Of a stretch of DNA of 64,000 nucleotides, positions 12,940-59,332 are shown in pieces. Position 1 is the first letter of the stretch. Every line of letters starts with the position of its first letter. The position numbers and the translations under genes were made by a program. Under the pieces are notes generated by a model. That model made no database searches and was not told where the DNA came from. It saw nothing but the letters and a program-made list of their open reading frames with translations. Source of the DNA: Candidatus Gastranaerophilales bacterium (lineage in GTDB: Bacteria; Cyanobacteriota; Vampirovibrionia; Gastranaerophilales; Gastranaerophilaceae). The stretch covers positions 2,719-66,718 of the forward strand of contig QAMI01000059.1 in NCBI GenBank assembly GCA_003150395.1. The letters run 5' to 3'.

Positions 12940-12969
12940 TTTTTAGAATAGTAAAAATAAGGAGCACAA

Positions 12970-13748
12970 ATGTCAAAAACACAAGTTATTATTGGATTTA
13001 ACGGGGGGGGGGGCACCCGGAAAACAGCTCCTTAAAGCCTTTTAAAATCAATGCTTTTACTCTTGCCGAAGTTCTTGTAACTCTGGGAATTATCGGGGTA
13101 ATTGCAGCAATGACTCTTCCGTCTGTTATTAATAAGGCGGAAAAAATGATTTTAAAAAACCAATTCAAGAAAACATATTCAACATTTTCGCAAGCATTGC
13201 TTAAATCCGAAGCTGATTATGGTGCAAAACCAGCATGTTATTATCTGACATCATCAAATTCTTCTGTATCCGGACTTATCTCAAGCCAGTATCTTGATGT
13301 AGAATGCAATGTTTTAAAAACACTTTTTCTGAAAAATTTGAATGTAATTGCAACTTGCGAAGATAATGCATACCCGACCTGCATACCAAAATATAAAGGT
13401 TTTGATACCATGGCGATTGAGAATAATCCAGACTTATCAGAAGAAGAAGCTTTAGAGATAGTCAGGGGGCAGTCGGGTTTCAAGCAGAATAATATTTTAT
13501 ACAAAGCACCTGCATACGTTTTGTCAGACGGTAGTATAATTTTGAGTTATGCCTCGGCATCCTTTCCTAAAATATTTGCAATAGATATTAACGGCAAAAA
13601 AGGACCAAACAAATGGGGGCATGACCTGTTTTCTTTCTGGATTGGAAGTAATGAAAAATCTAATATTATCCTTCTCGGAACAACTTATCTGGTTGAAAAA
13701 GGCGGTGTTACATCAAGAAAAATGATACAAGATGTTCTTAAAAAATAA
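12970..13748 (+). CDS. Type IV pilin-like protein, frameshifted at a G11 tract in the leader region (candidate phase-variable gene, OFF as sequenced)
   Basis: AAGGAG (12959-12964) then ATG 12970 gives MSKTQVIIGFN-G11. The frame as sequenced stops at TAA 13033. The other frame reads HPENSSLKPFKINA|FTLAEVLVTLGIIGVIAAMTLP and runs into track ORF 13110..13748. That frame has no canonical start between TAA 12999 and FTLAE. Confidence 0.75.
13003..13013. repeat. Homopolymer G11
   Basis: Counted directly: 13003-13013 are all G. Confidence 0.95.
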
Positions 13749-13814
13749 CTGCCAGCCAGGGTAATTTTTATTGAAGGCTCAGGAAATATAATCCTTTAAT
13801 AAGGAGAATTTCCA

Positions 13815-14261
13815 ATGAAGATTTATAGAAAACCGTCTGATGAAGTTTTAGTAAAGATGCTAGATGAAATTTCATACAGAGTTACTCAGTGCAATGCTGA
13901 AGAAAAGCCGTTCTCAAGTATTCACAACCGCAATTATAATGAGGGAATTTATGTTGATATTGTGACAAAAGAACCGCTTTTTTCATCACGATGTAAGCTT
14001 TTTACTAACTGCGGCTGGCCTTCTTTTTCTGCAACAATAAGCGATGATGCAGTTAGAGAATTTACTCATAATATTTGCGGATTTAAATTTGTTGAGGTCA
14101 GGAGTAAGTTTGGCAATTCTCATCTTGGACATCTTTTCAATGACGGCCCGAAAGAGGCCGGCGGTATGCGTTACTGCATAAACGGCGCCGCACTTAAATT
14201 TGTGGCAAAAGAAGATTTGGTAAAAGAAGGTTATGGAGAATATCTCTCATTTTTTCATTAA
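13815..14261 (+). CDS. msrB: Peptide-methionine (R)-S-oxide reductase
   Basis: 148 aa with CGWPSF and the catalytic RYCINGAAL motif. Confidence 0.9.
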   Translation: MKIYRKPSDEVLVKMLDEISYRVTQCNAEEKPFSSIHNRNYNEGIYVDIVTKEPLFSSRCKLFTNCGWPSFSATISDDAVREFTHNICGFKFVEVRSKFGNSHLGHLFNDGPKEAGGMRYCINGAALKFVAKEDLVKEGYGEYLSFFH

Positions 14262-14263
14262 AC

Positions 14264-14292
14264 AAAAGCCGGATTTAATCCGGCGCTTTTTT
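14264..14292 (+). terminator. Intrinsic terminator of msrB
   Basis: GCCGGA-tttaa-TCCGGC followed by GCTTTTTT. It overlaps the 3' end of the convergent esterase gene. Confidence 0.65.
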
Positions 14293-15249: not shown

Positions 15250-15393
15250 ATTAATACCTCATATCAGTTCTACAAAGCTTCACCGTTTAATTTCAGCAAA
15301 GCCTTCTCAAAGTTTTGCCCGGACTGATATAAGATAAATCCTGCTTGTATATAATTTTCAGGATAATGCTTCCTTGACTTACAATAAAATATA

Positions 15394-15439
15394 GAGATCC
15401 TTCGCAATATTGTCATTCTATGCGATTGCGAAGAATCTC
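15394..15439. repeat. Strong inverted repeat (15-nt arms, 1 mismatch, 16-nt loop); possible terminator of the upstream (-) gene or REP-like element
   Basis: GAGATCCTTCGCAAT (15394-15408) pairs with ATTGCGAAGAATCTC (15425-15439). On the - strand a T-rich stretch follows. The loop contains a GTCATTC core resembling the repeats at 59.3-59.5 kb. Confidence 0.6.
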
Positions 15440-15515
15440 CTCAAAATATTGCTCAGTATGACATATTTAGGAAAGGTAGTGTAGGTCAATGGAGAATTCC
15501 CATTTTCAGTATAAT

Positions 15516-22476: not shown

Positions 22477-24948
22477 ATGAAAAAAATACTTACATTAGCA
22501 ATATTGTTGACATTCTGTATGGAACCTTTAGCATTTGCGTCATCCGATGTCGCAGATACAGCTTCGGCCGCTGCCAGGGTTAAAATGGTGCAGAATGAAG
22601 ATCCGGCAATTAATCTTGATGCATTTGAAAATAATTATCAGGAAGCCGCAGAATCTTCCGCTCCAAAAGTTGTCCTAAGTCCTATAGAACAAATCTTTAA
22701 CGGAAAAGATACCGCTGTTTCAGGAAAAGTTCTTCACCAGGCAGGTTATGATCTTTTCACCTCAGGTTCAACGTCGCAAACTTCCGTAGGTAAATTTGGC
22801 AATTCCTATAAGTTAAGTATCGGCGAAAAAATCAATGTTTATACTTACGGAGATTCGGTTGACGTAATGGCAATTTCCGGAGCAAGTCTTGTTTCACCTT
22901 CATCTTCAACCCAGGTTGATTCAAAGGGTAATATTTTTATCCCTGGAGTAGGTTTAGTTAAAGCCGAAAACAGAACAATAAGCGATGTTGAGAATGAAGT
23001 TAACCGTGTTGCTGCACAAAAATATAAAAGTATGAAAATACGACTAACTGTTGCAACAGGTCAGGAATTTTCAGTATTTGTATACGGTCAGGTTAACAGA
23101 CCGGGCAGAGTCTTGATTGGAAATAATTCATCAGTTTTCGATGCGTTAAACGCAGCAGGCGGAGTTAAGAAAACTGGTACCTTAAGAAACATTTCATACA
23201 CCTCTGATAACAAAACAAAAAGTGTGGATTTATATAAAACTTTGTTCTTCGGAAACGATGATGGAATTATTGTTCGTCCAAACGACAAAATTTTTGTAGG
23301 CAAAATCGGTGATGTTGCAGCAATTAAAAACGGTGTAACTGTTCCTGCAATATATGAAATCCTTCCGGGAGAAAATATTGAAAAAGTCGTTGCTTTTGCA
23401 GGGGGATTGTTACCGCAGACACAAGTTTCTGAAGTTACTCTAATCGGATTTGATGTAAACCTTAAACAAAAGACAGCAGAAAACATTGCCTGGGATAAAG
23501 CAAGGTCAAAAGTTCTTAGAAGCGGTGATTCTGTAGAATTCAGAGAATTATACAATAATGCTGAAAATATCGTAACAATTCAAGGTAATGTAAAACATCC
23601 GACAACTTATGCTTATAAAGAAGGCATGAGGCTTTCTGACATTTTGAAAAGTGAAGACGAATTGTTAGAAGAAACTTTCATAAACCAGGCTGTTATTAGA
23701 AGAATTTCAGGTAAAGATAATACTATTGAAACAATTCCGATTTTCTTAAAAGAATTTTTCGCAGGAATGAACGATCCTGTTTTACAGCCGAAAGATATTA
23801 TTAATGTTTATAAAAATACAAATTCATTATTTGTGGACGTATATGGTTGTATAAACACCCCTAAACATCTTACATATACAGCCGGCATGACTCTAAACGA
23901 TGTTATGACAGATATTCAGTTCCTTGAATCAGATGTACAAAAACAGGATGTTGAAACTGAAAATAAAGAACAAGCAGAAACTGAGGTTGCATATCAAAAA
24001 GGCGCTGTTGAAGAAAACAGTGTTCATCTGGCTGCAGGAACCGCAAATTCAAACAAACTTATACCGGCAGAAAAAGTAGCTGTTGAAATTACAACTCCGA
24101 GCGGTGCTACTCAGGTTTACTATTTATATGATATAATGATAAATTCAGATAGAATTAAATCTATTGCTATCTCACCAGAGGATAAAATTTTCTTCAGAAC
24201 CCTGCGCGGAAATGAAGTTATGAAAACCGTTAAAGTTTCAGGTTTCGTAAAACATCCGGGCGTTTACACTTTTGTTGAAGGTAAAAGACTTGCTGATGTT
24301 ATAAAGATGGCCGGCGGGCTCTCTAAAGAAGCTGATTTGCGCGGAGTTGTATTCAAAAGGACTAACCTTCAGGGCAAACAGGTTGAACTTGCTCATAAAA
24401 ATAACGAGCGTGACATAAAACTTATCGAAGGTAGAATGGCCAGTGCGTATAAACCAACAGAAGCCGATCAGCAGTCAAAAGCTGAGATGTTAGAAATGCT
24501 AAAAGCTGAAGATCAGACAATTGCACAAAAATACACAGGGCAAATTGCTTTGAATATAAAGGATAACGATATAGATAAAATCAAAGATTTGGATAATATA
24601 GAAGTTCAGGATGGTGATGATATCTATATACCTAGAACTTCAAACCATGTAAGTATTATTGGTGAAGTTTACAATGAACAATCCTTTGTATACAAAAAAG
24701 GGGCAAATGCAAAATATTATATAAAAGAAGTTGGCGGCTATACTCCAAACGCAAACAAATTCCGACTTTATAAAGTAAGCGTAAATGGTCGCGCAGAAAA
24801 AATCAGAAACGGCAGCGATATTCAGCCCGGTGACACTATAGTTGTTCCGAGAAAAATTGCCGGGAATGATTGGATTACGCCAATATGTGAAACCCTTAAA
24901 GGTGTAGCGTCAATTATCGTTATGGCATTTGCTATCAATAAGTGGTAA
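22477..24948 (+). CDS. Polysaccharide export protein (Poly_export plus multiple SLBB-like repeats, Wza-related)
   Basis: 823 aa with a signal peptide. Repeated segments of the type V.V.G.V..PG.Y....G.RL.D.I..AGG. Confidence 0.7.
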   Translation: MKKILTLAILLTFCMEPLAFASSDVADTASAAARVKMVQNEDPAINLDAFENNYQEAAESSAPKVVLSPIEQIFNGKDTAVSGKVLHQAGYDLFTSGSTSQTSVGKFGNSYKLSIGEKINVYTYGDSVDVMAISGASLVSPSSSTQVDSKGNIFIPGVGLVKAENRTISDVENEVNRVAAQKYKSMKIRLTVATGQEFSVFVYGQVNRPGRVLIGNNSSVFDALNAAGGVKKTGTLRNISYTSDNKTKSVDLYKTLFFGNDDGIIVRPNDKIFVGKIGDVAAIKNGVTVPAIYEILPGENIEKVVAFAGGLLPQTQVSEVTLIGFDVNLKQKTAENIAWDKARSKVLRSGDSVEFRELYNNAENIVTIQGNVKHPTTYAYKEGMRLSDILKSEDELLEETFINQAVIRRISGKDNTIETIPIFLKEFFAGMNDPVLQPKDIINVYKNTNSLFVDVYGCINTPKHLTYTAGMTLNDVMTDIQFLESDVQKQDVETENKEQAETEVAYQKGAVEENSVHLAAGTANSNKLIPAEKVAVEITTPSGATQVYYLYDIMINSDRIKSIAISPEDKIFFRTLRGNEVMKTVKVSGFVKHPGVYTFVEGKRLADVIKMAGGLSKEADLRGVVFKRTNLQGKQVELAHKNNERDIKLIEGRMASAYKPTEADQQSKAEMLEMLKAEDQTIAQKYTGQIALNIKDNDIDKIKDLDNIEVQDGDDIYIPRTSNHVSIIGEVYNEQSFVYKKGANAKYYIKEVGGYTPNANKFRLYKVSVNGRAEKIRNGSDIQPGDTIVVPRKIAGNDWITPICETLKGVASIIVMAFAINKW

Positions 24949-27433: not shown

Positions 27434-28074
27434 GCTTTGTTCTTGCTTTAGTATTCGTAATTTTATGTGTTTTAATAACTTCCTGTTCTGTTGTAACCCA
27501 ATGGGACAGGAGTTTTATCATATTTATTCAAGAACGGCTGGCATTTTTACCGAATTGGATTCCAATGCTTCCTGATTGTGTTCTTTATACTGCGATGATA
27601 ATTTTGCCTCTTGGGCTTGGTGTTGTATTTTTTTTCAAAAAAAGATTGTGGGCTGATTTAATTTGCTTTTTATCAATTCCGCTTGTAACCTTTTTGCTTA
27701 ATTGTATTTTAAAACCTCTAATTCATCGTTCAAGACCGCCTTTGGAATTACAAATTACCTCAATCCATCCCGACAGTTTCAGTTTTGTCTCAAGCCACAG
27801 TTTGGTCACAATTTGTCTTTGGGGCATGGTAATTTTTTATTTAATTCAATATTGCAGAAATAAATTTTTGAAAATTTTTGGAATTTCCGTCTCTATTTTA
27901 TGGATTTTATTTGTGGGCTTAAGCCGCGTCTGGATAGGCGTCCATAACCCGACAGACGTTCTCGGAGCATATATTTTGGGCCTTCTGCTTTTAAGTTTTT
28001 ATATCTTATTGCCTGCACAAGTTAGTAAGGTTTTGAATTTGATTTTCAAGCGTATAAAAAATCCGGCTAAATAA
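27400..28074 (+). CDS. PAP2-family phosphatase (integral membrane)
   Basis: KPLIHRSRPP, SFVSSHS and SRVWIGVHNPTDV match the three PAP2 motifs. It overlaps the preceding gene by 34 nt. Confidence 0.8.
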   Translation: MYRKLCMLWKISFVLALVFVILCVLITSCSVVTQWDRSFIIFIQERLAFLPNWIPMLPDCVLYTAMIILPLGLGVVFFFKKRLWADLICFLSIPLVTFLLNCILKPLIHRSRPPLELQITSIHPDSFSFVSSHSLVTICLWGMVIFYLIQYCRNKFLKIFGISVSILWILFVGLSRVWIGVHNPTDVLGAYILGLLLLSFYILLPAQVSKVLNLIFKRIKNPAK

Positions 28075-28087
28075 CCGGATTTTTTAT
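28057..28087. terminator. Bidirectional intrinsic terminator
   Basis: AAAAATCCGG-ctaaataa-CCGGATTTTT between convergent genes. Confidence 0.75.
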
Positions 28088-28106
28088 TATTCTGATTTAA
28101 TCCTAA

Positions 28107-29480
28107 TTATTTAACAAGTACATCAAACGCAACTTTTTTATTCATTTCAGAAAGCATTGTTTTAATTTGTTTGTATAGCTTCGAATTTGTTTTGCCGATG
28201 CTTGCAAAGATTATGACTTCGCTGCTGTTTCTTACCTGCTGTACAAAGTCGTTTGAAATATCAGCTTTGACAAGTGTAACATTTCTGAATTCCTTTAATT
28301 GGTCTATAATATTTTGAGGAATATTTTCAAACACAATAATTGAAATTTTTTGGTCTTGGTTTGCAAGAAGCATTAATTTCAAATCGGAAAAATCGTTTTC
28401 CAGATTATAAATTATATTATCACCAAGCATTGAATATGATAATTTTTTGTCGGTAACTTCTGCAAAAATTACTGCAAAAATTGAGGCAATAAATCCAAAA
28501 ACAATACCGAGTAAAATATTAATTAATAATTTAGGTGAAGAATATTCAAAATCTCTGAGTTTTTGCGGTTCTTTAATCACAAGAACTTTCGAAGAATCGG
28601 ACATATCTTCGACCATTTTGGCCCATTGAAGCTTTGAGGATAGATTTGCAACTTTAGCCGCTTCTTCGGTAACCTCGATTCGTGAGCGTTGGCCTTCAAT
28701 AATCTGACCTTGTAAATTAGACATTGCATGCTGTGCGGATTTGGAAAATGCACTCATTGCAGATAATCCACCGGTTGAAACGACAGCTTGTTCAGGAAGA
28801 CCTGAAACTGTATTAACTTTTTTATTTAAAGCTGTTTTAGCTTTATTGTATTCGTTTTCTATCATTTGTTTATCGGATTTAGACTTTTCTGAATTTAATT
28901 CTTTATGCAATGCAATATAGTTTGTAATAATTGAATTTACAACATTATACGCAAGCTCAGGGTCTTTGTTTTTGTATTCAATACTTACAACATTTGTGCC
29001 TTTTTTGTTTTCAAACGAAATATTTTTCTTTAAAAATGAGGCTGTCGAAATATATTCACCCTCTTTTTTATTTGGTATAATTCCCCATTTTTTCTTTATA
29101 ATAAGATTATTTTCTCTGATAACTTTATCAATAACAAGAGGGGATTGCATAAGTTCAAGTTCATTTGTTAATGCTCCTGCGCCACCAGACATGAGAGCAG
29201 CCATACCACCGCCTGCCCCAAGTTCTTCAATAGCGTAAGGGTTAATTTCCATCATGTTCGAGTTGTTGGCTTTGTTTATGTACAGGTCAGAGGTAACTGT
29301 GTATTTTTTTGATGTAACAAAAGTTAGTGATATAAATAATAATATTATTGCGCTAAAAATTTTAAAAATTAAAAATTTCCGTGTACAAAGAGCAAAAAAT
29401 ATTTTTTTTAAATCTATCGTTAATTCTTTATCAAGTTCTTCCTGTGGAATGTAAGCTGTTTGCTGCATATAATCTCCCAT
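28107..29480 (-). CDS. Polysaccharide co-polymerase / chain-length determinant (Wzz-type) with a C-terminal extension lacking a Walker A motif
   Basis: Wzz-like N-terminal TM, long periplasmic coiled region, second TM LLINILLGIVFGFIASIFAVIFAEV. The tail of about 100 aa has no GxxGxGK[ST]. Confidence 0.65.
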   Translation of the reverse strand: MGDYMQQTAYIPQEELDKELTIDLKKIFFALCTRKFLIFKIFSAIILLFISLTFVTSKKYTVTSDLYINKANNSNMMEINPYAIEELGAGGGMAALMSGGAGALTNELELMQSPLVIDKVIRENNLIIKKKWGIIPNKKEGEYISTASFLKKNISFENKKGTNVVSIEYKNKDPELAYNVVNSIITNYIALHKELNSEKSKSDKQMIENEYNKAKTALNKKVNTVSGLPEQAVVSTGGLSAMSAFSKSAQHAMSNLQGQIIEGQRSRIEVTEEAAKVANLSSKLQWAKMVEDMSDSSKVLVIKEPQKLRDFEYSSPKLLINILLGIVFGFIASIFAVIFAEVTDKKLSYSMLGDNIIYNLENDFSDLKLMLLANQDQKISIIVFENIPQNIIDQLKEFRNVTLVKADISNDFVQQVRNSSEVIIFASIGKTNSKLYKQIKTMLSEMNKKVAFDVLVK

Positions 29481-29539
29481 TAAATATTTTTTTTCAGGAT
29501 ATAATAAACAAACAAAATTTGCAAATTTTTTAACATAAA

Positions 29540-30865
29540 ATGTATTTTTATGCTAAAATTCAAAATAACATGTTTAATCTTAAATATAATTTTTTAGTAG
29601 CTGTTCAAATTATAGTTGGTATCTTAAATACTGCACTCTTGATGCGTGTTTTTGGCGTCTCTATCCAGAGTGATGCTTATTTATTAGCAAGTTCTATTTT
29701 AATTTCCCTTCAAGGAATACAAAATATGTTCATAATTCAATTTATTCATTTTTATAATGATGAAAAAGTCAAATCAATTGAATCTGCAAATAAATTTTAT
29801 AACTGTTCTTTGCTTTTTGCTTTTATCTTTGGCATACTATCTTTTATAATTTTTTATTTGTTTTTGAATCAAATTATACATTTGTTTGTTTTAAATATTG
29901 ATATTGAAAGATTAAGAGTTTTAAAACAATTATTATTTGTATCAACTATCGTGCTTGTTTTTTATCCTGTTATTTCTATTAATGAGGCAATATTGAATGC
30001 AGAAATGCGGTTTTCTATTCCCTATATATTAAATACAATCCCTGCTGCTACTGTGGTCCTCGCCCAAATTGTATTATTGTATTTAGGAAGTAAAAATATA
30101 ACAATTTTAGCTTTTGCTCAGTCAATAGCTTCGGTTATGGTTGCCGTGTTTGGTACTATATATATTTCTCAAAAGCTTGTACCTTTTAGAGTTCAGCTTT
30201 GGCATGTAATTATGCCTAAATTTATAAAAAATAGTTTCGAAATAGCTGGTGGACATGCTTTTTATGGGATTATGTTTAATTTGGTATTAAATAATTTTCT
30301 TGTATTATTTTCGAAAGGTATAGTATCTTGCTACTATTATGCTAAGAAAATTATTGATATTTCGACTCTTTTTTCAATTGGTCCTTCAAAAAGTATTTTA
30401 AGATCAAATATTTCTAAATCTCTTGCTAATCAGGAACCTGAGTTAATAAAGAATTATATAAAAAAGTTTATAAAGCTTTCTTTAGTTATCTTTATTGTTG
30501 TTGCAACAGTTGCCTATTTATTACAGGGTCCTATAATAAAATTAATTTCGAATGACAGTATAAATAATGTTCAGATAAAACAAATTTCATATCTTTTCTT
30601 GGGCCTTTTGCCATGGAGTTTAATTGAACTTTTAGGTGTTCCTTTTGCTCAGTTAAATATTGCAGCTAAAAAGAGTATTTATTTAATTACTGCAAATATA
30701 GGTTTTATAATTGCTATTATAATTACTCTATACTTATTTAAAAATATCCTACAACTATATTCAATTATTCCTGCGACAATAATTGCAGCTACAACTTGTA
30801 CAATTTGCCATATTATATTTTCAAAAAAAATATTTGCTAAGTTAAGGAGAGTTTCGAATGAATGA
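29540..30865 (+). CDS. MOP-superfamily flippase (Wzx/MurJ-like)
   Basis: 441 aa with about 12-14 TM segments, located in the polysaccharide locus. Confidence 0.65.
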   Translation: MYFYAKIQNNMFNLKYNFLVAVQIIVGILNTALLMRVFGVSIQSDAYLLASSILISLQGIQNMFIIQFIHFYNDEKVKSIESANKFYNCSLLFAFIFGILSFIIFYLFLNQIIHLFVLNIDIERLRVLKQLLFVSTIVLVFYPVISINEAILNAEMRFSIPYILNTIPAATVVLAQIVLLYLGSKNITILAFAQSIASVMVAVFGTIYISQKLVPFRVQLWHVIMPKFIKNSFEIAGGHAFYGIMFNLVLNNFLVLFSKGIVSCYYYAKKIIDISTLFSIGPSKSILRSNISKSLANQEPELIKNYIKKFIKLSLVIFIVVATVAYLLQGPIIKLISNDSINNVQIKQISYLFLGLLPWSLIELLGVPFAQLNIAAKKSIYLITANIGFIIAIIITLYLFKNILQLYSIIPATIIAATTCTICHIIFSKKIFAKLRRVSNE

Positions 30866-35168: not shown

Positions 35169-35177
35169 ATGTTGATT

Positions 35178-42623: not shown

Positions 42624-42783
42624 ATCATACCTCTCTGTTCAATTATAATAATACAACAAACATGAAATTATATTAGCCAAATGGCTATAATATTAATAAA
42701 AGTTTTAACAATATATAACTAGTAGCTTATTAGTTTCTATATATTGTGTTATAATTATCTCTGTGAAACGTCAGGATAATAGT

Positions 42784-43785
42784 ATGACAAAGATTAAAAT
42801 TCTAGATTGCACTCTTCGCGACGGCGGCTATGTAAACCAGTGGAATTTTGGCGAAGAAAATATTCAAAAAATTATTCGAAATTTAGAAAATGCTCATCTC
42901 GATTATATTGAATGCGGGTTTCTTAATCAAAAAGTATATAACTCTAATGAAAGTCTATTTCAAAATATTAACCAATTAGAAAAGTTTTTATATAATAAAT
43001 CTTCTGAAACTTTATATTCTTTGATGATAAATTACGGTGAATATCCACTAGAAAACCTTCCTGAGTGTAAAAATAATAAAATTTTTTTAAGGGTTGCTTT
43101 TCATAAACGGAATTTTAAAGAAGCGATTATTTTTTGCGAGCAGCTTATTGAAAAAGGTTATGGAATCTTTTTAAATCCTAAACAAACAAATTTGTACACT
43201 TTCCAGGAAATGCTTGAACTTATAAATAGTGCTAATGAATTCAAACCAAAGGCTCTTACAATCGTTGATACCAATGGTGCAATGAAAGAAGATGATGTTT
43301 TTAAATTATTTCAATTAATTGATGAAAATTTAGATAAAAATATTGCATTATGTTTTCACTCTCACAATAACTTGCAGCTTTCTTTTGCAAATGCCAAATG
43401 TTTGATGAAAATTTGTACAGTAAGAGAACTTATTATAGATTCAAGTGTTTTTGGGATGGGGCGCGGTGCAGGAAATCTTTGCTCCGAACTTATTGTTAGG
43501 TATCTCAAAGATAATTACGGTGCAAATTATGAGCTTGTTCCGATTTTGAAGATTATAGACGAACAAATATATCCTATTTTTACACAAACAACTTGGGGAT
43601 ATTCTTTTCAGTATTTTCTTTCAGCTGTCAATAACTGTCATCCAAATTATGCTAAATATTTTGTTGAGAACCAAATTATTTCTGCTGAATTTATTAATAA
43701 TATTCTGCAAGCAATTCCTGATGATAAAAAATCCGTTTACGATAAGGATTTAATTAAACATTTGTGCAATTTAAGCAAAGTTTAA
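42784..43785 (+). CDS. HMGL-like (pyruvate carboxyltransferase/aldolase TIM-barrel) protein
   Basis: ILDCTLRDGGY, YIECGF and HSHNN motifs. ATG 42784; the track start is GTG 42763. Confidence 0.6.
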   Translation: MTKIKILDCTLRDGGYVNQWNFGEENIQKIIRNLENAHLDYIECGFLNQKVYNSNESLFQNINQLEKFLYNKSSETLYSLMINYGEYPLENLPECKNNKIFLRVAFHKRNFKEAIIFCEQLIEKGYGIFLNPKQTNLYTFQEMLELINSANEFKPKALTIVDTNGAMKEDDVFKLFQLIDENLDKNIALCFHSHNNLQLSFANAKCLMKICTVRELIIDSSVFGMGRGAGNLCSELIVRYLKDNYGANYELVPILKIIDEQIYPIFTQTTWGYSFQYFLSAVNNCHPNYAKYFVENQIISAEFINNILQAIPDDKKSVYDKDLIKHLCNLSKV

Positions 43786-43797
43786 ATGTTAAAACTC

Positions 43798-44757
43798 TTA
43801 TGAATACATCAAAATGCTGTTATAATGTAATTCTTTCACGATATCAATTATTTTGTTTATAAATTTCTTGTAGGCCTGTCTGTCGGCTTCACCTGAAAGA
43901 ATTATATCTGCATTAGAAATTGTCGGATGAATATGGGTTTTTGCTTTGCTGGCGGCGTTGTTGTAAACTTCATCGCTGGATGAACCCAAATTCCTTTCAG
44001 CTGCACGTTTGTAAAATCTTTCCTTTTGAATATTCGCCGAAACGTCAACATATATTTTAAAATCAAATGCATCAACGACTTTTTCGGTTAAAGTGAATAA
44101 CCCTTCCGAAATTATGATTTTAGCCGGAACCGCCCGGGTTACATTGTCTTTTCTGATTGCAGTTCCAGACATGTCATACTTTGGAAGCCAAACTGTTTTA
44201 CCGTTCAAAAGAGCTCTTATGTGTTCTTTCATTAGTTCCAGCTCTAATGCCTCCGGAATATCCAAATCGTAATGTTTTGCAAATTCAGCAAAACTTCCGG
44301 CTTTTTTTACCATTTCCGAGCGATCATAGTAATAATCATCTGTGTTAATTCTTGTAATCGCATTTTCAATGCAATATTCATTTGCAAAGGCTTCAATTGT
44401 ATCAATTATATCAAGCGTTATTGTTGATTTTCCGCTTGCAGTCTCCCCGGCAATTCCTATTGAACAGGCTCTGCCTTTGGCGCCGGATAAAAATAATGCC
44501 ATTTTATGAATGGCATTACTCGATACATATTTAAATATAGAATCAGATGAATCCATTTCATCTGCAAAAATTTTATTAAGCTTTTTTTCTATTGATTGAA
44601 AAACTAGAAGATTATTGTTTCTTTTACCTGAAAACAATTGTTTGTCTGAAGGTTTAATAGTTTTTGTAACGGTATTCTGCAATTTACAAATCCTTTTATT
44701 ATACTTCTTTTTTCCTATTTTACTACAATAAAAAATAAATAGAAGAAAATTTGTCAA
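43798..44757 (-). CDS. Uridine kinase/phosphoribulokinase-family P-loop kinase (start uncertain)
   Basis: IGIAGETASGKST Walker A. The track start is a TTG inside a TTGACA hexamer. The first in-frame ATG is at 44556. Confidence 0.6.
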   Translation of the reverse strand: MTNFLLFIFYCSKIGKKKYNKRICKLQNTVTKTIKPSDKQLFSGKRNNNLLVFQSIEKKLNKIFADEMDSSDSIFKYVSSNAIHKMALFLSGAKGRACSIGIAGETASGKSTITLDIIDTIEAFANEYCIENAITRINTDDYYYDRSEMVKKAGSFAEFAKHYDLDIPEALELELMKEHIRALLNGKTVWLPKYDMSGTAIRKDNVTRAVPAKIIISEGLFTLTEKVVDAFDFKIYVDVSANIQKERFYKRAAERNLGSSSDEVYNNAASKAKTHIHPTISNADIILSGEADRQAYKKFINKIIDIVKELHYNSILMYS

Positions 44758-44791
44758 AAATGTTAAAAATGTTCAAAATTTGTAATAAAAA

Positions 44792-45814
44792 TTATAATTT
44801 ATTGTTTTTTATTTGTTTATCAATTTTTTCGGCCAGATATGTTGAAATCATTGGTAAAAATCCATAATAAATTGCTGCAAAAATTAATGCCGGCCGTAAG
44901 ATATTGATACCTTCTATGTATTTGTAGAGTTTCGGGTCATTTTGGTTTAGTTTTGAAAATTTCTCAATAAAGGTTTGCGTGTGTTTTTTTATAACCCTGT
45001 CAACCGCATAGCCGCCGGTTAATGTAATTCCGGTTGAGATTACATTATTATAAATAAGCGCTTTTTTCCTATCTTCTTTAATTTTGCTGCTTTGATTTGT
45101 TAAATATGCAAAACTTGAGGTTAAGAGTATATCTGTGGCTGCTGTCATATGTTTTGCGATATTTTTGTCATTGTTTTGGTGTTTTGCGGCAAAGTTTCTA
45201 AAAACTTCCCAATCAAGAACTTTTGCAATGCCTTTTGGAATTGCTTCTGGCAAAGCGCCCGTAAAAGGAATGTTTTTTTCTTTCAAAGCTGTACTTTTCT
45301 GAGGAGTTTGTTTGTGCGGCACAATTTTTAGGTCAAACAGCTTGTCCATAATAATCGGAATAAAGGCAATTGTTAAGATAGATTTAGGAATTGCCGAAAG
45401 AAAGCCTGCACCTAATTTTAGAGTTTGGGTTGCAAGTTTGTAGCTCTTTGAAGAGGTCAAGGGATTTGAAGATGGCTGAAAACTTTTGATAGATGCCTTG
45501 TTAAGATATTTTTCGGGGTTTTTGTCGATTTTTTTTACGGCATTTTCAATTGGGAGTGCAATTGCTTCAACCATTGCAAATTTTATGAGTCCTGAACCTA
45601 TTGAATTTGCAATCGCATACTGTTTGTTCTCCTTTTCAACATTTGGGGTTGTAAGAATTGCAAGCGGACGTGTTGTAAGTGACATCACAAGCGCTGTTCC
45701 GGCAGAGAACGATGTAGCGTGCTCGGAAACTTTTTCAAGAGTTTTCAGAACTGTTTTGTTTGTCAAAACTCCTGTAAAATTTGGATTATTTCGGCTTACT
45801 TTATTTACTTGCAT
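44792..45814 (-). CDS. Hypothetical protein, member of a local paralogous family
   Basis: It shares an RP-x4-5-(D/P)(K/N)-x5-8-YA segment with 46924..47553 and 47553..48104. ATG 45814 follows AGGAAAAA. Confidence 0.5.
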   Translation of the reverse strand: MQVNKVSRNNPNFTGVLTNKTVLKTLEKVSEHATSFSAGTALVMSLTTRPLAILTTPNVEKENKQYAIANSIGSGLIKFAMVEAIALPIENAVKKIDKNPEKYLNKASIKSFQPSSNPLTSSKSYKLATQTLKLGAGFLSAIPKSILTIAFIPIIMDKLFDLKIVPHKQTPQKSTALKEKNIPFTGALPEAIPKGIAKVLDWEVFRNFAAKHQNNDKNIAKHMTAATDILLTSSFAYLTNQSSKIKEDRKKALIYNNVISTGITLTGGYAVDRVIKKHTQTFIEKFSKLNQNDPKLYKYIEGINILRPALIFAAIYYGFLPMISTYLAEKIDKQIKNNKL

Positions 45815-53640: not shown

Positions 53641-53668
53641 AAAAAAAGCTCCCTTTTGGGAGCTTTTA
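53641..53668. terminator. Bidirectional intrinsic terminator
   Basis: AAAAAAAGCTCCC-tttt-GGGAGCTTTT between convergent genes. Confidence 0.8.
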
Positions 53669-53669
53669 G

Positions 53670-54489
53670 TTATTTAAGCATTTCTTCAAACATTTGTTTT
53701 CCGGTTTTACCACCCTTTTCGGTTGCGTAAGTAATAGGAACTAAGCTAGTTATACCGTTTACATTATCCCCCTTCAACTGGAAGGTAAACATATCATATC
53801 CCCATTTATTCGGGTTTTTATGACCATTGATGTCAATGGTGAATAATGGTGTTGTGGAGCTATACCCAAGTATAATAGTTCCGTCCGCTAAAACCCACGC
53901 CGGCCACTTTTCTTTAATGTTTTTGTCGCTAAACCCACTATTCGGGTCTGGGTTTGCTTCTGGATTGTTTTCAAGTTTTACCTTATCAACGCCTTTGTGC
54001 TTATTTGTAATACAACCTTTCTCAAGTGCTTTATTCTGACAATATGTTGCAACATTCAGTGTCTTGAATAGTTGTTCTCTGAATATTTTACATTCATTCA
54101 TGCCACCGTTATAATCTGATGGAAGAGATGAACCATCAGGCATTGACCATTTATTACAGTTACCATATTCGTTACGGTTGGTGCAGGTTGCGGCGGGGTA
54201 TGGTGAGTTTGCCCAGTAGAAACAATTAATCGGCGCTTCATTTTTTGCCTGAACCAATTTTATTCCATTAAAAAGGATGTTGTAAGCTTTTTTGTACTGG
54301 TTTTTCAAAATCATGTTTTGTGCTTTGTTAATGACTGAAGGTAAGGTCATCGCAGCTATAATTCCGATAATCCCAAGTGTGATTAAAACCTCTGATAATG
54401 TAAACCCTTTTGAAAAATGGTTAAAACCATTGCTATGACTGAATTCTACGGGGGGGGGGGCAGCCCATAATTCCTATTCCTCTAAGCAT
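53670..54489 (-). CDS. Type IV pilin-like protein, frameshifted at a C11 tract in the leader region (candidate phase-variable gene, OFF as sequenced)
   Basis: AGGAGG (rc of 54495-54500) then ATG 54489 gives MLRGIGIMGC-C11. The frame as sequenced ends RRIQS*. The other frame reads VEFSHSNGFNHFSKG|FTLSEVLITLGIIGIIAAMTLP and runs into track ORF 53670..54350. That frame has no canonical start upstream of FTLSE. Confidence 0.75.
54450..54460. repeat. Homopolymer G11 on + strand (C11 in the gene sense)
   Basis: Counted directly. Confidence 0.95.
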
Positions 54490-54535
54490 TTTTACCTCCT
54501 GTATTTTTGAATAGTGCATGCTAATGATATCATTT

Positions 54536-55663
54536 CTACATATTTTTATCAAGTCTAATTCCTTCCGCATTTGCCAAAAACTCCATAACATTTATAACTT
54601 TCGGGTGTTTTTTGTGTAAAACTCCGGCAGCTGCAAATCCTTGTAAAATTCCTAAAACACAGGCCGGGCAGGTTGTTAAAACAATATCAGCCCCGGTTTG
54701 CAGAATATTTTTAGCTTTTCTTTGGGAGATTTCAGCAGAAAGTTTTGGATTTTTCAATGCAAATTCTCCTGCAAACCCGCAGCATTCGTCAAAATCTTTC
54801 ATTTCAATATATTCAACATTTTCGCATTTTTCTAATAGCGTTTTTATAAAATTTGCGTTTTCAAGATGACAAGGTTTGTGAAAAGTGACTTTTAAGTTTT
54901 TTTTGAAACTAAATCTAACATTTTGTGTTGTCGCAAATTCACCGGCATTAATAAACCTTGGTTTGTATTCTGTATTTTTAAAATATCCTTTCAAAGTGCT
55001 TTCACAGCTTGCGCAATCGGTTAAAATGTAATCAAATTCACAATCCAGAAGTTGAAGATTTCGGTTTTTGACTTGCTTAAAACGTTCCAAATTCCCGCTT
55101 GAAAGAAACGGCAGGCCGCAGCATTCAAAATCTTTTTCAATAACTTCAACATCCATATTTGAAAAAACCTTCTTTAAATCGTTTTCAACTTTTGGCGCTA
55201 TGTTGTTCACACAGCCTTTAAAGTAGAGAAGCTTTGTTTTTGGGGTGTTGTTGTTTGACGCGGATATGGAATTTAATTTTTGTCTTAGTCCGAAGTTAGT
55301 CAAAGATTTAACAAGCTTTATAAAATTCCCGAAAATTAAATCTGATTCTAAAAATTTTTCAAGTTTACCGTGAAAAGTATTTTTGGCGTATTCATATTTT
55401 GCCGTGTTAAATATTTCACAGACATCAATACTGCTCGGGCAAAAGTTTTTGCATTTACCGCATTTAAGACACATGTCCAGATATTTTTCGATATTTTTGC
55501 TGAGTTTTAAATCACCTTTAAGAATTCCGTCGAGCATAACGAATTTGCCGCGGGAAACAGCACAATCGTTGCCTGTAATTTTATAAACCGGGCAGACAGA
55601 TTGGCAAAGTCCGCATTTTGAACATTTGTTAATTTCATCGGCAAAATCTTGAAGTTTTTTCAT
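54536..55663 (-). CDS. (Fe-S)-binding oxidoreductase subunit, GlcF/GlpC-like (2x[4Fe-4S] plus 2 CCG domains)
   Basis: CSKCGLCQSVCP, CLKCGKCKNFCP, CCGLPF, CCGFAG. Confidence 0.75.
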   Translation of the reverse strand: MKKLQDFADEINKCSKCGLCQSVCPVYKITGNDCAVSRGKFVMLDGILKGDLKLSKNIEKYLDMCLKCGKCKNFCPSSIDVCEIFNTAKYEYAKNTFHGKLEKFLESDLIFGNFIKLVKSLTNFGLRQKLNSISASNNNTPKTKLLYFKGCVNNIAPKVENDLKKVFSNMDVEVIEKDFECCGLPFLSSGNLERFKQVKNRNLQLLDCEFDYILTDCASCESTLKGYFKNTEYKPRFINAGEFATTQNVRFSFKKNLKVTFHKPCHLENANFIKTLLEKCENVEYIEMKDFDECCGFAGEFALKNPKLSAEISQRKAKNILQTGADIVLTTCPACVLGILQGFAAAGVLHKKHPKVINVMEFLANAEGIRLDKNM

Positions 55664-55681: not shown

Positions 55682-56380
55682 TTACCACGGATAATCATCT
55701 CTGATTTCCCAGCCATCTGCCATAATCAACCCTAAACAAAATGCACCGTTTGTATCGCCGGCTTCTTTTCTACAACCATATCTTTGTGATTTAATAATTT
55801 CATTTCTGTCAAATTTTGAATATCCGCCAATATCGGATGTCCCTTTATAACCAAAAGGAACAAGGCCGTAGTCTTTAGATATAACAATCGCAAAAAAATC
55901 TTTTCCAAATTTGTTTGGCTTTTTATATCCGTTTAAATCAATACAGATAATCTTAAAAGGAAGATATGAGTACTGCTGGGTATTACTTAAATAAAATGTT
56001 GTTCCGTCAACAGTGCTTACAATCAGTGCTTCGGAGTAAAATGGAGTAAATGTATTTTCAATAGTTCCATTTGGCCTTGTATATTGAATTTTATCAGATA
56101 TTTTCCCATAAGATGTCATATTAATTGTTTTTAATTGAGGTTTTATATATTGATTAAAAAATTCAGCAGACGTCTGATTATAATTCCAATATGTCAGATT
56201 TTCGTTTTTTAGCTCAGAAAGTTCTATTGCCTGAGATAATATTGAATAAACTTTTTTTAATTGGTTTATTGTCTGAATTTTTTGATATTTCCCGATTAAC
56301 GCAGGTAGCGTTATAGCCGCAACAATTCCGATAATACCTAATGTTATTAAAACTTCTGGCATGGTGAATGCTTTTTTCAT
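55682..56380 (-). CDS. Type IV pilin-like protein
   Basis: MKKA|FTMPEVLITLGIIGIVAAITLP; IDLNGYKKPNKFGKDFF. The C-terminus YGCRKEAGDTNGAFCLGLIMADGWEIRDDYPW parallels 58634..59332. Confidence 0.85.
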   Translation of the reverse strand: MKKAFTMPEVLITLGIIGIVAAITLPALIGKYQKIQTINQLKKVYSILSQAIELSELKNENLTYWNYNQTSAEFFNQYIKPQLKTINMTSYGKISDKIQYTRPNGTIENTFTPFYSEALIVSTVDGTTFYLSNTQQYSYLPFKIICIDLNGYKKPNKFGKDFFAIVISKDYGLVPFGYKGTSDIGGYSKFDRNEIIKSQRYGCRKEAGDTNGAFCLGLIMADGWEIRDDYPW

Positions 56381-56524
56381 AAAAATCCTCTTTATTATAA
56401 TTTAAATATCTAACGAATGCGTTAATTATTACATTTATTCGTTCATTTGTCAATGAAGTTTTGAATTTATTTAATGAAAATTTAATTTAAAAGTAAAATG
56501 TTAAACGTATGAATGGAGCATTAA

Positions 56525-56740
56525 ATGATTATAAATGATTTAAAAAAAGTTTTACTAGACGTAAATATTTCATTGACCGAGTTAGCTGATGCGCTTGGAA
56601 AACGTTTAAATAAACATTATTCTTTAAATAATCTTTCAAACAAACTCCGCAACGAAACGATTACGCATCGTGAAATGATTATAATTGCAGATATTTTGGG
56701 GTATGATTTAAAATTTGTAAGGCGCAAAGAAAATCGTTAA
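56525..56740 (+). CDS. Small putative helix-turn-helix protein
   Basis: 71 aa. [12 protein letters not shown]...LSNKL resembles an HTH. Weak call. Confidence 0.35.
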
Positions 56741-58386
56741 ACAATCGCACCGTGGCTTGCATCCTGAACATTTTGTGCATATTTGAATAAATATCCTGAC
56801 TTAACTTTCGGCTCAAATGGTTTCAATTTTGAACGACGGTTTTTAAGGTCTACTTCGCTTACTAGAAGTTCTATTTTTCTGTTTGGGATATCTATTTTTA
56901 TTCTGTCGCCATCTTGTACAAGTGCTATTGCACCGCTCTTTGCAGCTTCTGGACAAATATGTCCGACGCAGATCCCGCGTGTTGCACCTGAAAATCTTCC
57001 GTCGGTAATCAGAGCGCAGGATTTGCCCAGACCTTTTCCTACTAAAAGCGACGTCGGGGCAAGCATTTCACGCATTCCGGGGCCGCCAGCAGGGCCTTCA
57101 TAGCGAATAACAATTACATCTCCGGCATTGATTTTGTCATTTTCTAAAGCTTCCATCGCGGCTTCTTCACTGTCAAAAGTTCTTGCCCTGCCTTCAAATT
57201 CATAACATTCAGGCGCCACTCCTGAAATTTTTATTACACATCCGTCTTTTGCAAGGTTGCCGTAAAGTACGCCTAGGCCGGCTTCTGTGTATGTTGAATT
57301 CTCATAAAGCGGAATGACTTCGGTATCGATATAAGCCTTTTGAGCAATTTCAGAGGTGGTTAAGCCACAAACCGTTGCAGTATTTGAAAGTTGTTTGCTT
57401 AAAGATTTCATCACTGCAGGAACACCGCCGGCATTGTGAAAATCTGACATTGTGAGTGTTGATGATGGATTAATTTTTACGATTTGGTGAATTTTACGGC
57501 TGAGTTTGTCAAAATCGTCTATTGTAACATCAAGATTGGCGGCGTTTGCAATTGCAAGAAGATGTAAAAACGTGTTTGTGGAGCCGCCGAGCGCCAGCGA
57601 GGCGGTAAGTGCGTTTATCAATGCATCTTTTGTGATTATGTCAGAAGGTTTTATATCATTTTTTACAAGTTCTAAAACTTGCATGCCGCTTTCAAAAGCT
57701 ATGCGGCGTTTGCGTGACGAAACCGCTGATGCTGAAGCACAGTACGGAAGCGACATCCCAAGGATTTCGGTCAGGCATGCCATTGTGTTTGCTGTGTACA
57801 TTCCTTGGCAGGCACCTGCTGAGGGGCAGGATTCCTCTTCAAGAGCAAGAAGTTCTTCTTCTGTAATTTCACCGTTTCTGAATTTTCCGACAGCTTCAAA
57901 AGAACCTGTTACCATTGTCAATTTGTGGTGATTTCTGCACTCACCATCTAACATGGGGCCTGCAGTTACTATTATTGCAGGAATGTTAAGCCTCAAAGCT
58001 CCGATAATCATTCCCGGCGTAATTTTGTCGCAATTAGAGAGTAAAACAATTCCATCAAGCTGATGTGCTGCGGCAACGCTTTCAACGCAATCTGCAATTA
58101 AATCACGTGAGGGTAAAGAATATCTCATACCATCATGCCCCATTGCAATTCCGTCGCAAATCGCAGGAACACCGAATATAAAGGCTTGACCGCCTGCAGA
58201 GTGAATTCCCTTCTCAATTTGACGTTCCAAATCTCTCATCCCGATATGTCCTGGCACCAGGTCTGAAAATGCGCTCGCAATTCCGATAAAAGGCGCTTTC
58301 ATGTTCTTTTTGCTTACGCCTGTTGCCATCAAAAGTCCGCGATGTGGAGTTTTTGAAATTCCTGATTTTATATTGTCACTTTTCAT
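56737..58386 (-). CDS. ilvD: Dihydroxy-acid dehydratase
   Basis: 549 aa with [51 protein letters not shown]. Confidence 0.95.
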
Positions 58387-58494
58387 AAATTTACTCCCTT
58401 GGTTTTATTTTACAGCAAATAAAACATTTGATAAAATTTCAAATAAATGGTATTATATAAATAGAATTAAAAAAGAATATAAGGAGCTAAGTTT

Positions 58495-58545
58495 ATGAAA
58501 AAGCGCACTATGACTGAATTGCCGGGGGGGGGGGGCATCCGCTAA
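58495..58545 (+). CDS. Upstream mini-ORF containing a G12 tract (MKKRTMTELPGGGGIR*); becomes the start of the downstream pilin at G11
   Basis: AAGGAG (58481-58486), 8-nt spacer, ATG 58495, stop TAA 58543. With one G fewer, the frame continues without a stop into MKKG|FTLAEV. Confidence 0.5.
   Translation: MKKRTMTELPGGGGIR
58524..58535. repeat. Homopolymer G12
   Basis: Counted directly. Confidence 0.95.
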
Positions 58546-58633
58546 TAGCACTCCTCACAGTTTTTTACGTATCTTGTGTATTGCTCATAATAATAATAAA
58601 ATGCTTAATGTATTAGGTGACATAAAGGGCGAT

Positions 58634-59332
58634 ATGAAAAAAGGTTTTACATTAGCGGAAGTTTTAATAACTCTTGGTGTCATCGGAATTATTGCAGCAA
58701 TGACTTTTCCAATGATGATTACCAAATATCAAAAACAGGTTACAGTTGAGCGTCTAAAGAAATTTTATTCTGTCATGCAAAATGCTATCAGGCTTTCTGA
58801 AGCTGATAATGGAGAAATGGCAGATTGGGATTTCCCTAAAGATACCTATGACAGAAATATGAAGACATTTTTTGACAGATATTACAGACCTTACTTGAAA
58901 GATTCTCAGGAATGCAGTAAGTCCTTATGTTTTAAACATGAAAAATATGATATTTATTACTTGAATGGGAAACCTGCTGGAGGAATTTATTCTGATAATT
59001 ATATAGTTAAGTTGAATGATGGGATGTATGTTTATTTTCTTCCAAATACTCCGGCAGCTTATATTTGGATGTTTGTTGACATAAACGGGCATCAGAAGCC
59101 AAACACCATAGGAAGGGACATTTTTGTTTTTGATATATATAGTTATCCTGCAAGGGCTCAACGCAAAAATTATCACATGAAATTCTGGGGTGAATACGAT
59201 AAAGATGATGGAAAATTAACTGACAGTAATGATTATGGCTGCAACAAGTCAGCATCTAGATATTCAGGTTTTAAATGCGGTGAATTAATCTTACGAAGCG
59301 GCTGGAAAATCCCCAAAAATTACCCCTGGTAG
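58634..59332 (+). CDS. Type IV pilin-like protein
   Basis: MKKG|FTLAEVLITLGVIGIIAAMTFP; VDINGHQKPNTIGRDIF; C-terminus YGCNKSASRYSGFKCGELILRSGWKIPKNYPW. There is only a weak SD (AAGGG) before ATG 58634. Confidence 0.85.
   Translation: MKKGFTLAEVLITLGVIGIIAAMTFPMMITKYQKQVTVERLKKFYSVMQNAIRLSEADNGEMADWDFPKDTYDRNMKTFFDRYYRPYLKDSQECSKSLCFKHEKYDIYYLNGKPAGGIYSDNYIVKLNDGMYVYFLPNTPAAYIWMFVDINGHQKPNTIGRDIFVFDIYSYPARAQRKNYHMKFWGEYDKDDGKLTDSNDYGCNKSASRYSGFKCGELILRSGWKIPKNYPW

Follow-up and report, generated by a model that had tools for sequence, protein, structure and literature searches.

The stretch of DNA analysed here, called the window below, comprises 64 kb of contig QAMI01000059.1 from a Candidatus Gastranaerophilales bacterium (Melainabacteria/Vampirovibrionia) of the human gut. 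It contains three genes for type IV pilin-like proteins (sites 1–3), in which a long homopolymer separates a well-initiated start codon from the prepilin cleavage motif, and a further tract of this kind (site 4) inside an acyltransferase gene. As sequenced, all four tracts are one nucleotide (nt) out of frame. The arrangement is followed here through related genomes and independent assemblies, and its probable role as a set of contingency loci is weighed against other explanations.

Four homopolymer tracts and their genes

The G+C content of the window is 34%. In its run-length spectrum, G runs of up to 6 nt and C runs of up to 5 nt are followed by a gap, no run of 7–10 nt of either base being present in the window, and then by only four long G/C runs. 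For runs of at least 11 nt, a first-order Markov model gives an expectation of about 6e-4 for each base and about 1e-3 in total, versus the four observed; the tracts are far beyond chance and the spectrum is bimodal. The original prediction, made from the letters of the window, had counted only four G/C runs of at least 11 nt and placed all of them in surface-structure genes. The spectrum confirms their number and coordinates, and the genes concerned are three pilin-like genes and one acyltransferase gene of a polysaccharide locus.

Sites 1–3 share an order of elements, namely a Shine–Dalgarno (SD) sequence, an ATG, the tract, a further leader segment and the cleavage motif (Table 1). The shared placement first proposed for them holds at all three sites, with the correction that site 2 is on the minus strand: its pilin is read from the opposite strand, with its own SD sequence and ATG, through a C11 tract that encodes proline. 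It was also rightly stated that the upstream ATGs of sites 1–3 do not read into the pilin frame and are one nucleotide from doing so. The restoring change is +1 at site 1 and –1 at sites 2 and 3, and in the pilin cassettes the ATG frame ends 2–7 codons past the tract. No ATG, GTG or TTG lies between the tract and the cleavage site at sites 1 and 2. At site 3, two in-frame ATGs follow the tract (58601 and 58634), so that this site is not strictly tract-dependent in this strain; the second of them corresponds to a canonical MKKG↓FTLAEV start (the arrow marks the cleavage site), and its methionine is a leucine in the relatives P0140, P0143 and P0150.

The pilin-like nature of the proteins is supported by profile searches. 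The prepilin cleavage/methylation model TIGR02532 (cutoff 16.3 bits) is passed by all three, with 19.6, 25.6 and 26.2 bits for sites 1, 2 and 3. PF07963 is passed by sites 2 and 3 (27.9 and 26.1 bits), and site 1, with 20.1 bits, is just below its cutoff of 21.2. Site 3 is matched by PF20318 (E=2e-12), and DUF6613, the type of head found at site 1, is matched by site 3 and by a tract-less paralogue (56380-55682). The motif has G or A at –1, F at +1 and E at +5, with about 20 hydrophobic residues. In an AlphaFold (AF2) model built from 44 relatives, the predicted local distance difference test score (pLDDT) is 90.8, with a long N-terminal helix (residues 4–56), as is typical of pilins, and an alpha/beta head. 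Foldseek comparison of this model with the PDB gave no match with an E-value below 0.6, so that fold-level membership among solved pilins is not demonstrable; judging from the model, the DUF6613 head may be an uncharacterised pilin head fold. Instead of being short and basic, the leaders of in-frame (ON) alleles comprise 29, 28 and 50 amino acids (aa) at sites 1, 2 and 3, respectively, and up to about 150 aa in relatives. The pilin-like genes are solitary and stand amid housekeeping genes (gdhA, msrB, ilvD and a glcF-like gene).

Another, very large pilin-like protein (>659 aa) runs off the start of the window (1-1977, minus strand). It has a normal short leader, MNKTRIWSG↓FSLVEMM, and regions rich in Gly, Cys and Tyr; its glycine runs are encoded by mixed GGN codons, without a homopolymer.

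Relatives of these proteins carry the names Candidatus Gastranaerophilales, Scatousia or Stercorousia, and PWL74260.1 and PWL74212.1, from a Gastranaerophilales metagenome-assembled genome (MAG), have exactly the sequences of two window proteins. PWL74212.1 (P0152) is the public version of site 1, which the Prokaryotic Genome Annotation Pipeline (PGAP) begins at an ATC located only three residues ahead of cleavage (MNAFTLAEV; gene region 13047-13748). Other gene callers begin at an internal methionine inside the transmembrane helix, giving proteins of 212, 226 and 245 aa. Taken together, the ATC start and the internal starts indicate that the family is systematically mis-annotated. Within the species, the differences in the site 1 pilin (L081–L090 compared with window positions 13053-13748) are mostly nonsynonymous, for example in 7 versus 2 codons. 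Per pair, 0–7 nonsynonymous and 0–4 synonymous changes were counted, which is too few for a ratio of nonsynonymous to synonymous rates (dN/dS). The excess fits diversifying or relaxed selection on a surface-exposed part, the counts being too small to decide.

Table 1. Features of the tract-bearing loci in the window
Feature	Position	Strand	Remarks
Site 1 promoter-like sequence TGCACA-17-TAGAAT	12921-12949	+	Consensus match only, 9/12
Site 1 SD AAGGAG; ATG	12959-12964; 12970-12972	+	
Site 1 pre-tract leader MSKTQVIIGFN	12970-13002	+	11 codons; identical in 10 independent assemblies
Site 1 tract G11, pilin-like gene	13003-13013	+	In frame at G12 or G9; ATG frame as sequenced stops at 13033-13035
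Site 1 post-tract leader HPENSSLKPFKINA	13014-13055	+	14 codons; pilin frame; ends at A(–1)
Site 1 mature pilin-like protein FTLAEV...	13056-13748	+	DUF6613-type head; stop included
Site 4 Acyl_transf_3 gene	39029-40098	–	Split by the tract into open reading frames (ORFs) of 216 and 125 aa
Site 4 tract G12 (C12 on + strand)	39454-39465	–	Inside the Acyl_transf_3 gene
Bidirectional terminator-like hairpin	53644-53667		After the site 2 gene
Site 2 mature pilin-like protein FTLSEV...	53670-54404	–	Stop included
Site 2 post-tract leader VEFSHSNGFNHFSKG	54405-54449	–	15 codons; ends at G(–1)
Site 2 tract C11 in coding sense (G11 on + strand), pilin-like gene	54450-54460	–	29 nt from ATG to tract; in frame at C10 or C13; ATG frame stops at 54435-54433
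Site 2 SD AGGAGG (54500-54495), ATG (54489-54487) and pre-tract leader MLRGIGIMGC	54461-54500	–	
Site 2 promoter-like sequence TTGATA-17-TATCAT with TG	54524-54552	–	Consensus match only
Paralogous pilin-like gene, short leader MKKA↓FTMPEV	55682-56380	–	No tract; internal comparison
Site 3 promoter-like sequence TTGATA-17-TATTAT with TG	58428-58456	+	
Site 3 SD AAGGAG (58481-58486), ATG (58495) and pre-tract leader MKKRTMTELP	58481-58523	+	
Site 3 tract G12, pilin-like gene	58524-58535	+	29 nt from ATG to tract; in frame at G11 or G14; ATG frame stops at 58543-58545
Site 3 post-tract leader	58536-58645	+	About 36 codons; open in pilin frame
Site 3 mature pilin-like protein FTLAEV...	58646-59332	+	DUF6613; stop included

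The leader cassette in related genomes and its length variants

A scan of species-representative genomes returned 591 relatives, of which the best 80 loci were kept, essentially all of them from Gastranaerophilales MAGs and representing about 30 species. In these loci together with the window, a G/C run is present within 260 nt upstream of 47 of 98 pilin motifs. Seen from the tracts, 50 of 59 runs of at least 8 nt lead, in one frame only, into an ORF of at least 200 codons, and in 49 of these 50 the pilin motif lies 6–154 codons downstream of the tract; in the remaining two frames, a stop is reached within about 4 codons. Together, the leader segments contain 1861 codons without a stop, versus 9% stops in the other frames of the same DNA, which indicates that the region from tract to cleavage site is kept translatable. 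That the pilin frame is open back to the tract argues that translation enters upstream of it, and an SD-preceded ATG is found 21–34 nt upstream of the tract (84 nt in one subfamily) in 45 cassettes. Glycine is encoded by about 90% of the tracts, which are runs of G on the coding strand; a few are runs of C (Pro). Since the tracts are pure in about 75 cassettes and the ORFs of at least 200 codons are intact, these genes are not decaying pseudogenes. Tracts absent or interrupted in close relatives had been named at the outset as an outcome that would speak against a switch; they are uninterrupted, and the arrangement is kept in about 30 species. Many database proteins likewise begin with M..GGGG.., followed by APENSSLRGKEAG↓FTL or similar.

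The immediate flanks of the tracts show a preference of their own, in an AT-rich genome. Read in the G orientation, C is found at –1 in 33 of 40 cases, C at +1 in 36 and A at +2 in 32 (L001–L080 and the window). The few poly-C-coding cassettes have the same flanks once reverse complemented, and in ON alleles with G11 the C on the 3′ side forms the last letter of a GGC codon.

A perfect complement of the SD context AAGGAGC(T), the motif (A)GCTCCTT, is located 9–13 nt past the tract in about 12 of 45 cassettes (12959-12965 versus 13026-13033 in the window; also L002, L003, L023 and L028). On average, the longest SD complement measures 4.9 nt versus 3.8 nt in shuffled sequences. This complement could sequester the SD sequence or be the SD sequence of an inverted cassette; it is not universal, and a hairpin AAGGAGCT ... 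AGCTCCTT around the tract was rejected as a general feature because only these cassettes, about 12 of the 45, would form it. The same motif provides stop codons in both non-pilin frames (TAGCTCCTAA).

The leaders have a mosaic appearance. One leader cassette (...GGGG NSVAPKPA↓FTLAEV) recurs in front of mature domains that differ greatly (L130, L152 and L003), and in some leaders the real cleavage motif is preceded by one or two degenerate versions of it (GFTLAEGATHVA...; P0018, P0108, P0111, L023 and L041), which suggests that the 5′ regions were built by recombination at the conserved FTLAEV segment. In addition, the close relatives P0002, P0139, P0155 and P0159 of the site 1 and site 3 genes share about 300 nt of inserted sequence (...RSLTRYRFENKSPKNFF...FSRFTSHFS...) past the tract and ahead of the cleavage site; the pilin frame runs through this insertion without a stop, and the leaders reach about 110 aa.

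Tract lengths at the same loci were obtained from independent assemblies through neighbouring housekeeping proteins, so that there was no selection on tract state. Length variation with conserved flanks, the comparison that the original prediction had proposed as a check, was found at all four sites, for site 2 through its lineage. Each of the four sites is also represented by in-frame alleles that code exactly for the predicted leader or fusion. At site 1, ten samples with near-identical flanks have G11 (eight), G12 (one) and G10 (one), and a further relative (P0008) has G9. The ON alleles of this site are P0001 and P0165, with G12, and P0008, with G9, P0165 being the exact window protein with G12. 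The sole difference between the G9 and G12 alleles is one glycine in the leader, as expected from the earlier claim that changes of 3 nt spare the mature protein. At site 2, every informative near-identical sample has C11; the sister lineage has C11 in 15 cases and C12 in two, and the C10 ON proteins of the lineage, P0126 and P0130 (MLRGIGFIGCPPPVKF...), are encoded on seven contigs. Site 3 has G12 in the window and G10 in sample ERZ28573821, and an in-frame relative of ON type is P0150 (278 aa). For locus L003, the G11 version built in silico has a verbatim match in the protein collection (P0264, on one contig). Its cluster comprises about 123 contigs with G10, 10 with G9 and this single one with G11 (about 92%, 7% and 1%), and at G9 a second ATG comes into frame.

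Second start codons in another frame just upstream of the tract are not confined to the near ATG of L003 (G9; P0267 and P0276), since a TTG is found at site 1 (G10; P0166) and another in the sister lineage of site 2 (C11; P0122). Tract length might therefore set three expression levels rather than two. Logan contigs often end at or a few nucleotides from the tracts (L092, L097–L099 and L108–L110), and L087 has two substitutions immediately past its tract; both observations point to heterogeneous or poorly read DNA at the tracts. When the flanks of site 1, separated by a gap of variable length, were sought in Joint Genome Institute (JGI) metagenomes, no match was returned.

Site 4 shows the same frame-switch logic within a surface-polysaccharide acyltransferase gene. 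Full length is reached at G13 instead of the G12 of the window, and the G13 reconstruction is a protein of 356 aa matched by PF01757 (E=6e-20). Orthologues, located via the protein encoded at 40091-41260, have identical flanks and tracts of G12 (three), G13, G14 and G15, and three contigs end at the tract; the G13 version, L105, has a called acyltransferase product of 356 aa. The gene belongs to a surface-polysaccharide locus of low G+C content (27–31%; about 28000-45000), together with genes for a Bac_transf priming transferase and for NTP_transferase, SIS and GHMP kinase proteins. A Poly_export/SLBB protein is encoded just upstream of this locus (22477-24948), and a Wzy_C O-antigen-ligase-like gene (61054-59726) adjoins site 3. 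The 217-aa ORF at 38433-39086 has no exact match on record.

Across the cassettes, the state as assembled is strongly biased towards the out-of-frame (OFF) condition. The SD-preceded ATG is in frame in only 2 of 51 cassettes, versus one-third expected at random (P ~4e-7), and in 40 of the 51 no start codon of any kind is present in the pilin frame upstream of the tract. Loci with G10 always need +1 and those with G11 and G12 mostly –1; in all, +1 is needed in about 30 loci and –1 in about 13. Whatever the frame class, the tracts avoid the length that would be in frame. A second, independent set was assembled from metagenome contigs matched by a pattern allowing G8–G14. All 28 of its tracts are out of frame, and in one cassette subfamily, the major one, G10 is found in 22 of 23 cases and G9 once, in-frame G11 never.

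Probable phase variation and its alternatives

In keeping with the original prediction, which the comparative data support, these loci are probably contingency loci, subject to translational phase variation by slipped-strand mispairing. The anatomy of the cassettes, their conservation across species and the polymorphism of tract length between samples, with ON and OFF alleles of the same loci, are directly seen in the assemblies. Each tract-bearing pilin-like gene consists of a promoter-like site, a strong SD sequence, an ATG, 7–28 codons, a run of 10–12 G (rarely C) and a leader of 6–154 codons, held open in the pilin frame up to the class III motif (G/A)↓F(T/S)L(A/S)E. The pilin would be reached from the upstream ATG only, when the length of the tract joins both parts in frame. 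Replication slippage by 1 nt in either direction would switch synthesis, reversibly and within populations; a change of 3 nt would add or remove one glycine (or proline) in the leader, whose removal by prepilin peptidase is presumed. At almost every locus the OFF genotype prevails, typically with G10, the ON state being G11. By analogy with Opa proteins or Bacteroides capsules, each cell would then express a few members of a large pilin-like repertoire.

Several points weigh against this interpretation. The evidence comes from assembled sequences, in which contigs that break at the tracts are the only, and indirect, hint of heterogeneity within populations and of reversible switching. The finding of 2 in-frame cassettes out of 51 needs an extra assumption, either selection for the OFF state or a mutational attractor. 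Moreover, the consensus lengths are strikingly uniform (G10 in 22 of 23 cases, about 92% in L003, C11 at site 2) and steadier than at many classical contingency loci. Site 3 owns start codons downstream of its tract. As to the pilin assignment, no type IV pilus or type II secretion system (T2SS) component and no prepilin peptidase gene was found among the 20 window ORFs scanned. The ON leaders exceed the textbook ranges, which are below 10 aa for type IVa and 15–30 aa for type IVb pilins (PMC4471445). Finally, off-by-one calls can affect individual loci, database lengths being known to err by one (PMC9187656).

The main rival is programmed recoding, in which the out-of-frame genotype is functional and pilin is made at a low or regulated level through RNA polymerase slippage or ribosomal frameshifting on the run. 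We regard it as unlikely. The near-universal one-nucleotide-off state would itself be selected, and the family would be expressed by slippage on the G run, constitutively at a low level or tuned by conditions, which has a small chance of being the case; it is just as doubtful that in-frame alleles at the DNA level are, in such a scheme, rare over-expressers. Recoding would readily account for the OFF bias (49 of 51 cassettes and 28 of 28 tracts of the second set), for the avoidance of the in-frame length in every frame class and for the great stability of the G10 consensus across samples, and a homopolymer as long as the RNA:DNA hybrid is a substrate for transcriptional slippage. To our knowledge, no family-wide programmed recoding on a G/C homopolymer has been described. 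The well-documented slippage sites of bacteria, however, are A/T runs. Both +1 shifts (about 30 loci) and –1 shifts (about 13) would be required, so that no single ribosomal shift fits. RNA structure past the tract is not in excess (mean z 0.09 versus –0.2 in the control), and a search of the whole window against Rfam found only a tRNA, without a match at the cassettes. It also speaks for events in DNA that in-frame alleles occur in assemblies (P0165, P0264, P0126 and L105) and that tract length varies between samples, as DNA slippage predicts. The precedent of Bifidobacterium breve likewise ties expression to replication slippage (PMC9187656).

It is quite improbable that the tracts are real, stable and in frame, with lengths miscalled by one through a sequencing or assembly artefact. 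A uniform under-call of one nucleotide would bring the commonest class (G10, needing +1) into frame, but it cannot explain all sites, because sites 1 and 2 need opposite shifts (+1, and –1 with a C11 reproduced in more than 20 samples) and at site 3 the in-frame G11 falls between the two alleles, G10 and G12. G tracts are indeed hard to sequence, and an annotated G11 proved to be mostly G12 in B. breve (PMC9187656); the L087 substitutions right past the tract and the contigs breaking at tracts could have a similar origin. Yet site 4 spans G12–G15 with identical flanks, and the same lengths recur across eras and assemblers (CAG scaffolds, SPAdes, MEGAHIT and Logan). The existence of the tracts is in any case no artefact, as about 30 species share them and the ON alleles translate them into runs of Gly or Pro.

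The remaining explanations, regulation by an upstream ORF and an inversion cassette, fit only single features. In the former, a short ORF ending past the tract would control a pilin that has its own start near the cleavage site, and the tract would be no frame switch, which we hold to be very improbable. The in-frame ATGs of site 3 (58601 and 58634), where callers annotate starts, and the PGAP start of site 1 three residues before the cleavage site (MNAFTLAEV, P0152) are compatible with such control, as is the SD complement just past the tract in about 12 of 45 cassettes. Nevertheless, the methionine at 58634 is not conserved, and ATG, GTG and TTG are missing between tract and cleavage site at sites 1 and 2 and in most cassettes, for which re-initiation after a short ORF is thereby ruled out. 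If translation started at the cleavage site, there would be no point in keeping the pilin frame free of stops as far back as the tract, up to 154 codons away.

Least credible of all is a recombination or inversion module with the G run as crossover or recognition site: the site 2 cassette is inverted relative to its gene, in that its plus strand (54400-54500) reads attgctATGACTGAATTctac-G11-CAGCCcatAATTCCT and matches the coding-strand leaders of site 3 (58505-58545; ctATGACTGAATTgcc-G12-CAtCC) and L053 (~2947), the flanks (C at –1, CA at +1/+2) keep to the G orientation whichever strand codes, one cassette is joined to very different mature domains and the leaders look mosaic, with duplicated FTLAEGATHVA remnants, but site 2 has one and the same orientation in every informative orthologous sample (more than 20), flanking inverted repeats do not exceed 5–8 nt, no recombinase gene adjoins any site, and the runs of sites 2 and 3 are in direct, not inverted, orientation.

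Known switches and the biology of the family

Phase variation through repeats near the 5′ end of surface genes is well established in other bacteria, and the sortase-dependent pilus loci bbr_0113 and bbr_1889 of B. breve UCC2003 are the closest precedent for the pilin-like cassettes. In the first pilin gene of these loci, G10/G11 separates an ORF for a Sec signal from the pilin body; the majority and annotated genotype is OFF, gain or loss of one G fuses the two parts and gives pili, and the in-frame length, carried by a minority, becomes enriched in vivo in the mouse gut (Penno et al. 2022, PMC9187656). Common to both systems are a gut commensal as host, an upstream ORF that is short and well initiated and that a G tract connects to an out-of-frame body, and an OFF majority. 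Even the length profiles are similar, with G10 93%, G9 6.5% and G11 0.1% at bbr_1889 (PMC9187656) and about 92%, 7% and 1% of contigs, counted between samples, at L003. However, the B. breve proteins are Gram-positive sortase/LPXTG pilins with Sec signals, whereas the proteins considered here are unrelated to them and have class III leaders, and no LPXTG or sortase context was seen at the pilin-like sites. One or two loci per genome are concerned in B. breve, as opposed to about half of a large dispersed family. B. breve belongs to the Actinobacteria and its switching was shown experimentally, while the present loci belong to Melainabacteria and their switching is proposed from assembled sequences.

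In the Opa proteins of Neisseria, CTCTT pentamer repeats are located in the region coding for the leader peptide (PMC3960869). They too form a surface multigene family with copies that are switched independently in a region removed from the mature protein, most being off, and in-frame repeat changes leave the mature protein unaltered. The differences lie in the pentanucleotide repeat and in the Sec signal, which belongs to an outer-membrane beta-barrel and is not a prepilin leader. As regards the neisserial pilC genes, Jonsson and colleagues are said to have placed the tract in the signal-peptide region in 1991. Both pilC1 and pilC2 contain a genic G tract, G(9-20) (PMC5953494). The resemblance is that frameshifts in a poly-G tract, close to the 5′ terminus of a gene associated with type IV pili, turn piliation ON or OFF; unlike a pilin with a class III leader, the pilC product is a tip/assembly protein with an ordinary signal peptide, present in two copies only.

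Campylobacter jejuni and Helicobacter are AT-rich, and nearly all of their long G/C runs belong to genes for surface structures. As an acyltransferase gene of a polysaccharide locus, site 4 is a textbook case of such poly-G contingency genes, but the tracts of Campylobacter and Helicobacter are mostly intragenic in glycosyltransferase, capsule and flagellar-modification genes, not in pilin leaders. With type IV pilins and T2SS pseudopilins, the family shares the (G/A)↓FxxxE motif and, as predicted, a hydrophobic alpha-1 helix and a globular head (PMC4471445). It departs from them in its DUF6613 head without a Foldseek match, in leaders of 28–50 aa (more than 100 aa in relatives) and in its solitary genes.

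In light of these systems, the novelty first claimed for a switch built into long prepilin leaders of a multigene family was too strong, since repeats in leader regions are classical (PMC3960869 and PMC5953494) and a mostly OFF G tract between a signal-peptide ORF and a pilin body is described in B. breve (PMC9187656); its application to a class III multigene family does stand as new. What is new is thus real but more modest than claimed: a class III prepilin context with long leaders, affecting about half of a family across an order, in the uncultured non-photosynthetic sister group of the cyanobacteria. A literature search found no paper linking Melainabacteria or Gastranaerophilales to phase variation, homopolymers or pilin switching.

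From a practical standpoint, annotation pipelines truncate or mis-start these genes and assemblies break at their tracts, and the loci can be used as markers of strain-level population dynamics in metagenomes. The most interesting point is the near-universal ‘one G short’ state, which existing read data could address. Gastranaerophilales, which have yet to be cultured, are common in human and animal guts, and hardly anything is known about the biology of their surface. If the loci are indeed phase-variable, most hypermutable loci of Gastranaerophilales would control one pilin-like family, with three such switches in the 64-kb window. Almost every copy would be one slippage event from expression, leading to a sparse, stochastic surface display that may serve adhesion, DNA uptake, or evasion of phages or immunoglobulin A (IgA).

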